A DNA stretch of 12,341 nucleotides from Escherichia coli. Lineage in GTDB: Bacteria; Pseudomonadota; Gammaproteobacteria; Enterobacterales; Enterobacteriaceae. The position numbers and the translations under genes are program-made. Below, piece by piece: positions 3,820-6,002 of this stretch (positions are counted from its first letter, which is position 1; every line of letters begins with the position of its first letter). Below the pieces are notes generated by a model, which saw only the letters and a list, made by a program, of their open reading frames with translations, ran no database searches and was not told where the DNA came from. The stretch lies in NCBI RefSeq assembly GCF_003334815.1, contig NZ_QOWO01000059.1; one strand, given 5' to 3'.

Positions 3820-4902
3820 TTACGATTTTCTCATTAACAGCCACAGGCTGATTAAGAAGAAGCTGGCGCTTGGCAACAGTGCGCCGATAATCGGCGGGAT
3901 GCCGTAAACCAACGTCAGCGGGCCGAAGATCTGGTCCAGTACGTAGAAGACAAAACCGAAGCTGATACCGGTGACCACACGCACGCCCATCGGTACGCTA
4001 CGCAGTGGGCCAAAGATGAACGACAGCGCCATCAGCATCATCACCGCCACGGATAGCGGCTGGAAGATTTTGCTCCACATATTGAGCTGATAACGTCCGG
4101 CATCCTGACCGCTCGACTTCAGATACTTCACGTAGTTGTGCAAACCGCTGATTGAGAGTGCATCCGGGTCCAGCGCCACCACGCCCAGTTTGTCTGGCGT
4201 GAGGTTGGTTTTCCAGGTGCCGCTCACCGTCTGCGAACCGGTGATCTGTTTCGGATTGGTCAGATCAGATTCATCAACCTGCGACAGACGCCAGACTTTA
4301 TGTTCCGGGTCAAACTTCGCAGTAGCGGCATAGCGTACGGATTGCAGACGACGATTTTCGTTAAAGGCATAAATGCTGATGCCACCTAACTCTTCGTCAC
4401 CTTTAACCCGCTCAATGTAGACGAAGTTGTTGCCATCTTTCGCCCATAAGCCTTGCTGGGTAGAGAGCAACGAGCCGCCGTACATCGCCTGCGCACGGTA
4501 GTTACGCGCCATCTGCTCGCCCTGCGGCGCGACCCATTCGCCAATCGCCATCGTCAGCAAGACCAGCGGAATGGCGGTTTTCATCACCGACAGCGCCACC
4601 TGCATACGGGTAAAACCAGAAGCCTGCATCACCACCAGTTCGCTGCGCTGCGCCAGCATCCCAAGACCAAGCAACGCCCCAAGCAGAGCCGCCATCGGGA
4701 AGAAGATTTGCACATCTTTCGGCACGCTCAGCAAGGTATACATTCCTGCGCCTAACGCGTCGTAACTCCCCTGCCCGGCTTTTTTCAACTGATCGACAAA
4801 TTTGATAATGCCCGACAGCGACACCAGCATGAACAGCGTCATCATGATGGTGGTGAAAATAGTTTTACCGATATAGCGGTCAAGTACGCCAAAAGGTTGC
4901 AT
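3820..4902 (-). CDS. lptG: Lipopolysaccharide export ABC permease LptG
   Basis: 360 aa from ATG 4900..4902 (MQPFGVLDRYIGKTIF...); polytopic membrane protein with a periplasmic beta-jellyroll region. The track's first codon (4903..4905) is GTG one codon upstream. The start overlaps the lptF stop by 1 nt. Confidence 0.94.
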   Translation of the reverse strand: MQPFGVLDRYIGKTIFTTIMMTLFMLVSLSGIIKFVDQLKKAGQGSYDALGAGMYTLLSVPKDVQIFFPMAALLGALLGLGMLAQRSELVVMQASGFTRMQVALSVMKTAIPLVLLTMAIGEWVAPQGEQMARNYRAQAMYGGSLLSTQQGLWAKDGNNFVYIERVKGDEELGGISIYAFNENRRLQSVRYAATAKFDPEHKVWRLSQVDESDLTNPKQITGSQTVSGTWKTNLTPDKLGVVALDPDALSISGLHNYVKYLKSSGQDAGRYQLNMWSKIFQPLSVAVMMLMALSFIFGPLRSVPMGVRVVTGISFGFVFYVLDQIFGPLTLVYGIPPIIGALLPSASFFLISLWLLMRKS

Positions 4903-6002
4903 CACACCGCTCCTTTACGCGAAAAACTGGCGCGCAGGCGGCGGACCGGCACGGTGTCCCAAAGGTTGAGAACAATCGCCAAAGCCAGATAAATCAGGTT
5001 AACGGTCCACATCCACAGCGTCGGGTCCAGCTTACCTTTACCGCCGTTCGATTTCAGGGAGGTCTGGATCAGGAAGAAAAGTAGATACAGCAGCATGGCT
5101 GGCAGCATCGACAGTACGCGTCCCTGACGTGGGTTAACCACGCTCAGCGGTACGACCATAAGTGCCATCATAAACACGGTGAATACCAACGTGATACGCC
5201 AGTTCAGTTCTGCGCGAGCACGATCGGTGTCAGTGTTCCACAATGTGCACATGTCCATCTGGTCGGTATCGTTCGGGTCGAGCGCCACCGCCTGGTGACC
5301 AATGATCGCCTGATAATCCTGGAAATCCGTAATGCGGAAATCACGTAACAGTGCAGTGCCTTCGAAGCGCGTTCCCTGGTTGAGAGTGACGACCTGGGAG
5401 CCGTCGCGCAGCTGGGTTAAATGTCCGGAATCGGCCACCACCACAGAAGGACGTGCATTACCTTTTGGTCGAATTTGTGCGAGGAACACATCTTTGAAAT
5501 CGCTGCCGTCAACGCTTTCGATGAACAGCACCGAGCTGCCATTAGTCGCTTGCTGGAATTGCCCTTGCGCCAGCGCCGCCATGCCAGGGTTCGCTTTCGC
5601 TTCTGCTAACACTTCATCCTGATGACGCGATGACCACGGTCCCGCCCACATCACGTTAACCGCCGCGACGATTGCCGTGAATACCGCAAGGATCATTGCC
5701 GCTTTCACCAGAACCGCTTTGCTCAGGCCGCAGGCATGCATTACCGTAATTTCACTTTCGGTATACAGTTTGCCCAGCGTCATCAGCAGCCCGAGGAACA
5801 GGCTTAATGGCAGGATAAGCTGCGCCATTTCCGGCACGCCCAACCCGAGAAGGGAGAGCACCAGATTCGCCGGAATATCGCCGTCAACCGCTGCGCCGAG
5901 GATCCTCACTAACTTTTGACAGAAGAAGATCAAAAGCAAGATGAAGAGTATCGCCAGCTGGCTTTTGAGCGTCTCCCGCACCAGATATCTTATGATTATC
6001 AC
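4902..6002 (-). CDS. lptF: Lipopolysaccharide export ABC permease LptF
   Basis: 366 aa (MIIIRYLVRETLKSQLAILF...), stop TGA at 4902..4904 overlapping the lptG ATG. Conserved operon partner of lptG, divergent from pepA. Confidence 0.95.
   Translation of the reverse strand: MIIIRYLVRETLKSQLAILFILLLIFFCQKLVRILGAAVDGDIPANLVLSLLGLGVPEMAQLILPLSLFLGLLMTLGKLYTESEITVMHACGLSKAVLVKAAMILAVFTAIVAAVNVMWAGPWSSRHQDEVLAEAKANPGMAALAQGQFQQATNGSSVLFIESVDGSDFKDVFLAQIRPKGNARPSVVVADSGHLTQLRDGSQVVTLNQGTRFEGTALLRDFRITDFQDYQAIIGHQAVALDPNDTDQMDMCTLWNTDTDRARAELNWRITLVFTVFMMALMVVPLSVVNPRQGRVLSMLPAMLLYLLFFLIQTSLKSNGGKGKLDPTLWMWTVNLIYLALAIVLNLWDTVPVRRLRASFSRKGAV

Follow-up and report, generated by a model that had tools for sequence, protein, structure and literature searches.

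One-base stop/start overlaps at lptF-lptG and holC-valS of Escherichia coli: likely translational coupling in the first pair and mostly independent valS expression in the second

We analysed a 12,341-nt stretch of DNA (the window), which is Escherichia coli chromosome and carries two overlapping gene pairs, lptF-lptG and holC-valS (Table 1). All four products scored above the curated NCBIfam equivalog cut-offs (bits versus cut-off: LptF 384/230, LptG 456/240, chi 337/281 and ValS 1304/612), identifying each pair as adjacent same-strand protein-coding genes, and cross-hits between the NCBIfam profiles marked LptF and LptG as paralogues. At the first junction, the stop codon of lptF (TGA, 4904..4902) and the start codon of lptG (ATG, 4902..4900) have one base in common; at the second, the same holds for the stop codon of holC (TAA, 8575..8577) and the start codon of valS (ATG, 8577..8579), so that both spacings are -1. 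RefSeq marks the same overlapping base at both pairs in strain ML35 and in K-12 MG1655, and an alignment of homologues from 80 species confirmed the start choice at both overlaps. An earlier note on this DNA had proposed both one-base overlaps and named the genes, and the sequence, NCBIfam and RefSeq agree that it was correct in this. A sequence scan revealed no terminator-like site between the genes of either pair.

Table 1. Positions of the genes, junctions and signals in the window.
Feature	Coordinates	Strand	Details and source
lptF CDS	4902..6002	-	366 aa, GTG start at 6002; ORF list, NCBIfam TIGR04407, RefSeq
lptG CDS	3820..4902	-	360 aa; NCBIfam TIGR04408, RefSeq, conserved ATG
lptF-lptG junction TGATG	4900..4904	-	base 4902 common to both genes, CATCA on the plus strand; sequence
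lptG Shine-Dalgarno AAGGAG	4910..4915	-	within the last lptF codons, 7 nt 5' of the ATG
holC CDS (DNA polymerase III chi)	8134..8577	+	147 aa; NCBIfam NF004345, RefSeq
predicted sigma-70 valS promoter	8450..8479	+	within holC; consensus scan
holC-valS junction TAATG	8575..8579	+	base 8577 common to both genes; sequence
valS CDS (valine--tRNA ligase)	8577..11432	+	951 aa; NCBIfam TIGR00422, RefSeq
terminator-like hairpin 3' of valS	11452..11477	+	

A second candidate start for lptG, the in-frame GTG at 4905..4903, would create a 4-nt GTGA overlap. We rejected it: this GTG is not conserved, occurring in 6 of 36 Enterobacterales-group sequences, all from Escherichia (the window and ML35 among them) or Pseudocitrobacter. 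The ATG, by contrast, does not vary across the Enterobacterales loci and is therefore identified as the start.

Both overlaps are ordinary, and finding them matters little. Among same-strand E. coli gene pairs, 707 of 2,987 are spaced -8 to +6 nt; -1 is the second commonest same-strand gene spacing in prokaryotes, and subunits of complexes are enriched among short-spaced pairs (PMC10666635). Moreover, both overlaps are already known from standard annotation and from the literature: the genome-wide table of gene pairs in the supplement of Huber et al. (2023) gives each pair at distance -1 (PMC10666635). The window contains 69 TRATG pentamers versus ~51 expected, a count that is uninformative for the overlap claim; what is non-random is the position at two confirmed gene boundaries.

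The spacing of lptF and lptG proved short (taking -8 to +10 nt as short) and conserved across taxa. Among 80 loci from gammaproteobacteria of four orders, one per species, it lay between -8 and +3 nt in 76. Its exact form varied by order, with -1 in 31 of 35 Enterobacterales, -4 (ATGA) in 17 of 27 Alteromonadales and, among the 14 Vibrionales, 0 to +3 in seven and -1 in another six. Over 710 species, the median spacing of the COG0795 pair is -4 (Huber et al. 2023, PMC10666635). Within E. coli, the 61-nt junction had the same sequence in 5,386 of 5,426 complete genomes. The duplex between the lptG Shine-Dalgarno sequence and the anti-Shine-Dalgarno reached -8.3 kcal/mol, matching the Enterobacteriaceae median of -8.3, and AGGAG or GAGG stood at a constant distance from the lptG ATG in the alignment. 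Furthermore, synonymous diversity among close relatives was 0.22 in the last eight lptF codons versus 0.39 in the rest of the gene.

As its two membrane subunits, LptF and LptG belong to one complex, the lipopolysaccharide exporter LptB2FG; the pair is marked 'complex: yes' by Huber et al. (2023) (PMC10666635), and lptFG has been described as a bicistronic operon (PMC4986956). In the proteome datasets of Mori et al. (2021), the LptG/LptF ratio is ~0.55-1.0, within two-fold of 1:1 (PMC8144880), with the caveat that membrane proteins are quantified imprecisely by mass spectrometry and that one dataset gives ~0.56; by these values, the downstream rate is not far above the upstream rate. Matched co-translation of lptF and lptG fits the conserved junction, the strong Shine-Dalgarno sequence at a fixed distance, the common complex and the ~1:1 protein ratio, and coupling is plausible on this evidence. 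The earlier note had considered co-translation in fixed stoichiometry likely for both pairs and had named conservation of the overlaps as a check; for lptF-lptG, the former is consistent with the evidence and the latter was upheld.

With the lptG Shine-Dalgarno sequence inside lptF and the lptG ATG directly at the lptF stop, a ribosome ending lptF would come to rest on the lptG initiation site. Coupling might then follow either of two routes: the terminating ribosome is re-used locally, or de novo initiation, assisted by the Shine-Dalgarno sequence, is eased as the upstream ribosome opens the region. The likely outcome would be coupled, roughly equimolar synthesis of LptF and LptG. That translation of lptG depends on that of lptF is the part of this scheme that we infer; the anatomy, the deep conservation and the ~1:1 protein ratio are observations. 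A similar arrangement is found in the E. coli trp operon at trpB-trpA, which likewise has TGATG, a spacing of -1, a Shine-Dalgarno sequence within the upstream gene and two products that are subunits of one complex, and which is cited as a proven coupled pair (PMC12548453, PMC7538156). Coupling of trpB-trpA is experimental, though modest (1.7-fold in a reporter assay, PMC7538156), whereas we infer that of lptF-lptG.

Coupling of lptG to lptF could also operate through RNA unfolding, the Shine-Dalgarno sequence and AUG of the free mRNA being trapped by pairing with the 3' end of lptF until a ribosome translating lptF opens the hairpin. In the E. coli fold, upstream lptF coding sequence does pair into a hairpin whose 3' arm holds the lptG Shine-Dalgarno sequence (GGAG) and AUG, and the minimum-free-energy structure (-28.6 kcal/mol) is identical to the centroid. 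However, this fold was no stabler than shuffled sequence (z = -0.18), RNAalifold found no common structure at the lptG start in 21 Enterobacterales sequences, and with the E. coli hairpin forced onto the alignment, the cells that paired amounted to 67.1% versus 66.7% in shuffles, with covariation of 0.127 versus 0.129. Given stability at the level of shuffles and the lack of consensus or covariation, we rejected a hairpin sequestering the Shine-Dalgarno sequence as a conserved mechanism, and consider this route to coupling unlikely.

The holC-valS overlap behaved differently in the same comparison. It was present in 13 of 18 Enterobacteriaceae sensu stricto, limited to an Escherichia/Citrobacter/Enterobacter subclade, and in none of the 62 other loci, so that conservation of the overlap, upheld for lptF-lptG, failed here. 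Elsewhere the spacing ran from +5 to +219; exceptions were four species at -8, one at +1 and one at +4. Across 143 species, the median is +16, and the pair is listed as 'complex: not' (Huber et al. 2023, PMC10666635). With -1 in 13 of 80 loci, holC-valS thus shows neither a conserved short spacing nor products that belong to the same complex. The overlap is a recent trait of one Enterobacteriaceae subclade, in which it replaced a spacer of 5-13 nt.

Published ribosome profiling, the check that the earlier note had suggested, contradicts fixed stoichiometry for holC-valS. Burkhardt et al. (2017) report a ribosome density of 41.96, an mRNA level of 221.4 and a translation efficiency of 0.189 for holC, and 691.45, 583.3 and 1.185, respectively, for valS (PMC5318159); their table has no entry for lptF or lptG. 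From these values, valS exceeds holC 16.5-fold in ribosome density, 6.3-fold in translation efficiency and 2.6-fold in mRNA, a difference in mRNA that may partly reflect processing or stability. The downstream rate is therefore far above the upstream rate, and the ratio of ribosome densities refutes fixed stoichiometry for this pair; no more than about 6% of initiations on valS could be supplied by ribosomes finishing holC. The connection of a tRNA synthetase to a replisome subunit that had been read into the overlap reduces to conserved gene adjacency.

The valS start region has a weak Shine-Dalgarno sequence (GGAA, -3.3 kcal/mol) and is predicted to be unpaired by RNA folding; the in-vivo DMS Gini of valS is low, at 0.244 (PMC5318159). 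Initiation on valS would occur de novo at this A-rich, unstructured region with its weak Shine-Dalgarno sequence. In this reading valS is expressed mostly on its own, with little contribution from the overlap, and ValS is made about 16-fold faster than chi.

A consensus scan predicted a sigma-70 promoter for valS inside holC, composed of a -35 element TTGCCA (8450..8455), an 18-nt spacer and an extended -10 element TGnTAGACT (8471..8479), with a predicted transcript start near 8486 and a leader of ~91 nt. Positions 8480-8490 of the window correspond to about 4,483,928 on the minus strand of K-12 MG1655 (NC_000913.3). This promoter-like element falls where synonymous diversity drops sharply, at holC codons 104-117 (0.187 versus 0.490 elsewhere in the gene; 35 Enterobacterales, Mann-Whitney p = 2e-5), where conservation is partly protein-driven, given that the promoter-like nucleotides overlap a conserved protein motif. 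Within the same region, the rare Ile codon ATA was used in 24 of 24 cases. For the -10 part, conservation extended to Vibrionales and Aeromonas, where GTGGTAGAC/T was also preserved; it was absent from Alteromonadales despite retention of the DFVP protein motif. The element thus combines -35 and -10 sequences at proper spacing with conservation beyond what the protein needs. In addition, mRNA coverage of holC is uneven, with a Gini of 0.391 (PMC5318159).

The consensus match, the nucleotide conservation and the mRNA step indicate that a valS promoter probably lies in holC codons 106-116, and the higher valS mRNA level together with the conserved internal site suggests that most valS mRNA starts within holC. 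Searches of Cappable-seq tables with coordinate prefixes for valS and lptG transcript starts gave no match, the SMRT-Cappable-seq tables held no entry for them, and literature text searches for holC or valS promoters returned nothing relevant. Heck and Hatfield are said to have mapped a valS promoter in 1988. When lptF was scanned for a trough in synonymous diversity like that of holC, none was detected, constraint being confined to 10 codons at the start of the gene and 6-8 at its end. A promoter for lptG inside lptF was rejected on this ground and because the sole promoter-like match (4883..4856, minus strand) lies 3' of the lptG start.

Overlapping downstream genes with promoters of their own are known from lptC-lptA in the yrbG operon, where lptAp1-p2 lie inside the upstream coding sequence (PMC4986956), an arrangement akin to the one that we propose for holC-valS. 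The two cases differ in that lptC and lptA overlap by 32 nt and their promoters were mapped experimentally, whereas that in holC is predicted, with backing from conservation. A more ambitious reading, which we hold tentatively and at somewhat less than even odds, is that holC codons 104-117 have a dual role as a chi motif and as the main valS promoter. The choice of codons for chi, including ATA, would then be set by valS transcription, the overlap would be an incidental late by-product, and the nested promoter would be the sole link between replisome and translation. If this dual role is real, how deeply the promoter is conserved and the constraint of dual coding might be new, while the promoter itself was perhaps mapped in the 1980s.

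Taken together, we interpret the two junctions as ordinary -1 overlaps of differing functional weight, with coupling likely at lptF-lptG and with valS mostly independent and probably served by an internal promoter; we assign this reading a probability of roughly 0.85. An explanation in which neither overlap is functional, both being neutral by-products of genome compaction or of start/stop drift with independent downstream genes, agrees well with holC-valS, where the overlap is clade-restricted and valS is translated independently. It also agrees with the finding that relative translation in overlapping E. coli ORF pairs is as variable as in non-overlapping pairs (PMC5318159). Nevertheless, we regard it as improbable as an account of both pairs: the lptF-lptG spacing stays within its narrow range while its form switches among TGATG, TAATG, ATGA and abutting codons, which points to selection on spacing and not on a particular sequence, and the final lptF codons show constraint at synonymous sites. 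Tight coupling of both pairs by termination-reinitiation, with the same ribosome yielding 1:1 output at each, is very improbable, for although both are spaced at -1, the optimum for this process, four of the five overlapping pairs examined in E. coli were coupled (Huber et al. 2019, PMC6728339) and complex subunits are enriched at short spacings (PMC10666635), a 16.5-fold excess of ribosomes on valS is impossible under 1:1 re-initiation and refutes it for holC-valS, the holC-valS overlap is not conserved, and bioB-bioF overlaps without coupling (PMC6728339).

The pairs examined by Huber et al. (2019, 2023), of which hyfHI, astDB and ydbH-ynbE as well as menDH were coupled and bioB-bioF uncoupled (PMC6728339, PMC10666635), are native E. 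coli same-strand stop/start overlaps, as are lptF-lptG and holC-valS. They have 4-nt ATGA overlaps, whereas our two pairs have -1 and appear in the 2023 table only. Like bioB-bioF, holC-valS illustrates that an overlap does not guarantee coupling; it has the geometry of trpB-trpA without its behaviour. An overlap seen in raw sequence alone therefore does not predict matched output, given that the same geometry fits coupling in lptF-lptG and accompanies a 16-fold difference in holC-valS. For engineering or deletion of holC, the 3' third of the gene probably carries expression signals of valS, which is essential.

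The stop codon of lptF and the start codon of lptG share a single base, as do those of holC and valS, and the sequence and the RefSeq annotation of ML35 and K-12 MG1655 agree on both overlaps, confirming the positions claimed in the earlier note. The window is E. coli chromosome in the orientation opposite to K-12; several complete genomes, such as strain ML35, are 100% identical across 98% of its length, and each of the 5,426 complete E. coli genomes has a match. LptF, LptG, PepA, chi (the HolC product) and ValS scored above their curated NCBIfam cut-offs for equivalogs. A GTG in frame with lptG, three bases ahead of its ATG, could form a GTGA overlap but was rejected as the start: it is confined to Escherichia and Pseudocitrobacter sequences, and the ATG is present without exception in the Enterobacterales loci. 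With 69 occurrences in the window where ~51 would be expected, the pentamer TRATG is uninformative by itself; the non-random feature is its position at two gene boundaries.

Features of the window in gene order
Feature	Window	Strand	K-12 MG1655 RefSeq	Remark
tRNA	773..854	-		first in gene order
ahr, then yjgR				between tRNA and lptG
lptG	3820..4902	-	4487318..4488400
TGATG	4904..4900	-		lptF stop TGA, lptG start ATG
lptF	4902..6002	-	4486218..4487318
ytgA	6065..6115	-		16 codons, TTG start, SD GAGAGG; 62 nt upstream of lptF, same strand
pepA	6269..7780	+
Ysr276 match	6827..7021	-		antisense to pepA coding sequence
pepA-holC spacer	7781..8133
REP/BIME-like units	7790..8085
naRNA4 matches	7855..7930, 7951..8026	-		in pepA-holC spacer
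holC	8134..8577	+	4483837..4484280
Promoter-like element	8450..8479			inside holC
TAATG	8575..8579	+		holC stop TAA, valS start ATG
valS	8577..11432	+	4480982..4483837
Terminator-like hairpin	11452..11477			bidirectional; between valS and yjgN
yjgN	11486..12184	-		downstream of valS, opposite strand

A one-base stop/start overlap is a very common arrangement: the commonest same-strand spacing in E. coli and across 1,695 species is -4, followed by -1 and -8, and 707 of 2,987 E. coli same-strand pairs are spaced at -8..+6 nt (Huber et al. 2023, PMC10666635). Both overlaps were already known, since the supplementary table of that study lists lptF/lptG ('complex: yes') and holC/valS ('complex: not') at -1; in its cross-species table, the median spacing over 710 species is -4 for the COG pair LptF/LptG, and that over 143 species is +16 for HolC-ValS.

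We placed the junctions by tblastn anchoring in 80 loci around pepA homologues, taking one genome per species from Enterobacterales, Vibrionales, Aeromonadales and Alteromonadales.

Junction spacing in the surveyed loci (nt; -1, one shared base)
Group (loci)	lptF-lptG	holC-valS
Enterobacterales (35)	-1 in 31, 0 in 3, +1 in 1	-1 in 13/18 Enterobacteriaceae sensu stricto; rest +5 to +28, -8 twice
Alteromonadales (27)	-4 (ATGA) in 17; 26/27 at -8..+1	+14 to +206, -8 twice, +1 once; not found in 5
Vibrionales (14)	-1 in 6, 0..+3 in 7, +118 in 1	+18 to +219; not found in 1
Aeromonadales (3)	-7 in 1, +25 in 2	+15 in 1, +65 in 2
Unclassified gammaproteobacterial MAG (1)	-1	+4
All (80)	-8..+3 in 76	-1 in 13 only

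Conservation of the overlap held for lptF-lptG in 31 of 35 Enterobacterales loci and failed for holC-valS beyond a subset of Enterobacteriaceae sensu stricto. Because the form of the lptF-lptG junction changes across the 80 loci (TGATG, TAATG, ATGA or abutting) while its tightness does not, sequence comparison indicates that this spacing is under selection. The Shine-Dalgarno (SD) site of lptG is strong (AGGAG or GAGG, duplex ~-8.3 kcal/mol) and lies at a constant distance of ~7 nt; of 5,426 E. coli genomes, 5,386 carry the 61-nt junction unchanged. Two outliers, Vibrio sonorensis (+118) and Pseudoalteromonas sp. TB64 (+234), possibly reflect truncated or frameshifted lptF in the assemblies, and in two Aeromonas species the +25 spacer is genuine and carries its own SD. 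In contrast, no -1 spacing of holC-valS was found among the 80 loci beyond 13 related species (Escherichia, Citrobacter, Enterobacter, Leclercia, Pseudocitrobacter, Superficieibacter and close relatives), whose junction sequences are almost identical. The valS SD was weak in every surveyed locus, with duplexes no stronger than -3.3 kcal/mol. Among E. coli genomes, 4,240 carry an identical junction and 1,186 match it at 95-99% identity.

The earlier note had proposed co-translation in fixed stoichiometry for both pairs, and for lptFG translational coupling is plausible. In a minimal model, a ribosome terminating lptF would be positioned on the lptG initiation site, where the SD would hold or recruit the small subunit, and the paralogous subunits LptF and LptG would be made at similar rates from one mRNA and could assemble together. 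The arrangement resembles trpB-trpA, in which TGATG joins two subunits of one complex and the SD lies within the upstream gene. Columns of the proteome tables of Mori et al. 2021, with values of the same order for two proteins of nearly equal mass, put LptG/LptF at ~1.0, 0.56 and 0.72 in three datasets; these ratios are consistent with near-equimolar output, although membrane-protein quantification is imprecise. A hairpin locking the E. coli lptG SD and AUG was unsupported, being no more stable than shuffled sequence, and the alignment yielded neither a consensus fold nor covariation for it. Since lptF has a GTG start and no evident SD (-3.3 kcal/mol), its own translation may start inefficiently or be affected by upstream small ORFs; the K-12 annotation has ytgB as well in the ytgA region.

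For holC-valS, the proposal as stated is refuted. Given ribosome densities of 691.45 on valS and 41.96 on holC (Burkhardt et al. 2017 Supplementary File 1, PMC5318159, where the valS 'ORF distance' of 0 is the shared base), ValS is synthesized ~16.5 times faster than chi, a product of 2.6-fold mRNA (583.3 vs 221.4) and 6.3-fold translation efficiency (1.185 vs 0.189), and ribosomes leaving holC could supply at most ~6% of valS initiations. Relative translation is as variable among overlapping as among non-overlapping ORF pairs (PMC5318159). The pair resembles bioB-bioF, which overlap without coupling, and lptC-lptA, which has promoters within the upstream gene. Several features fit independent expression of valS. 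Its start region is rich in A and was predicted to be unpaired, and the DMS Gini measured in vivo around the start is correspondingly low (0.244, PMC5318159).

A consensus scan identified a sigma-70-like element, TTGCCA-18-TAGACT with an extended -10 TG, inside holC. When 35 Enterobacterales were aligned by codon, it coincided with a sharp trough in synonymous diversity at holC codons 104-117 (8443..8484; 0.187 vs 0.490 elsewhere, Mann-Whitney p = 2e-5), and in 24 of 24 cases the Ile codon is the rare ATA, which forms TGATAGACT. Vibrionales and Aeromonas keep the -10 part, GTGGTAGAC/T, whereas Alteromonadales encode the DFVP protein motif with other nucleotides, so part of the conservation concerns the nucleotides themselves. 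The step in mRNA level (2.6-fold) and the uneven coverage of holC mRNA (Gini 0.391, PMC5318159) point the same way. Together, these observations suggest that holC contains a conserved promoter for valS; its transcript is predicted to start near 8486, with a leader of ~91 nt. A valS promoter was reportedly mapped by Heck and Hatfield in 1988.

Elsewhere in the window, the pepA-holC spacer contains approximately three tandem REP/BIME-like units ('gccggatgcggcgtgaacgccttatccgacctac...') and two matches to Rfam naRNA4 (RF02564); as it measures 353 nt here and 159 nt in K-12 MG1655, repeat copy number is strain-variable. The strong match to the Yersinia 'antisense sRNA' family Ysr276 in Rfam (175 bits vs a gathering score of 100) may reflect pepA conservation only. 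The idonate genes idnR-idnT-idnO-idnD-idnK are absent between yjgR and ahr (~2070..3820, 1..1000), which adjoin each other; in K-12, idnR and idnT directly follow yjgR. In ML35, the tRNA is annotated as tRNA-Leu and is followed by a site-specific integrase, a typical island insertion site. The yjgN gene, intact in K-12, is annotated in ML35, whose sequence here is identical, as a pseudogene interrupted by an internal stop.
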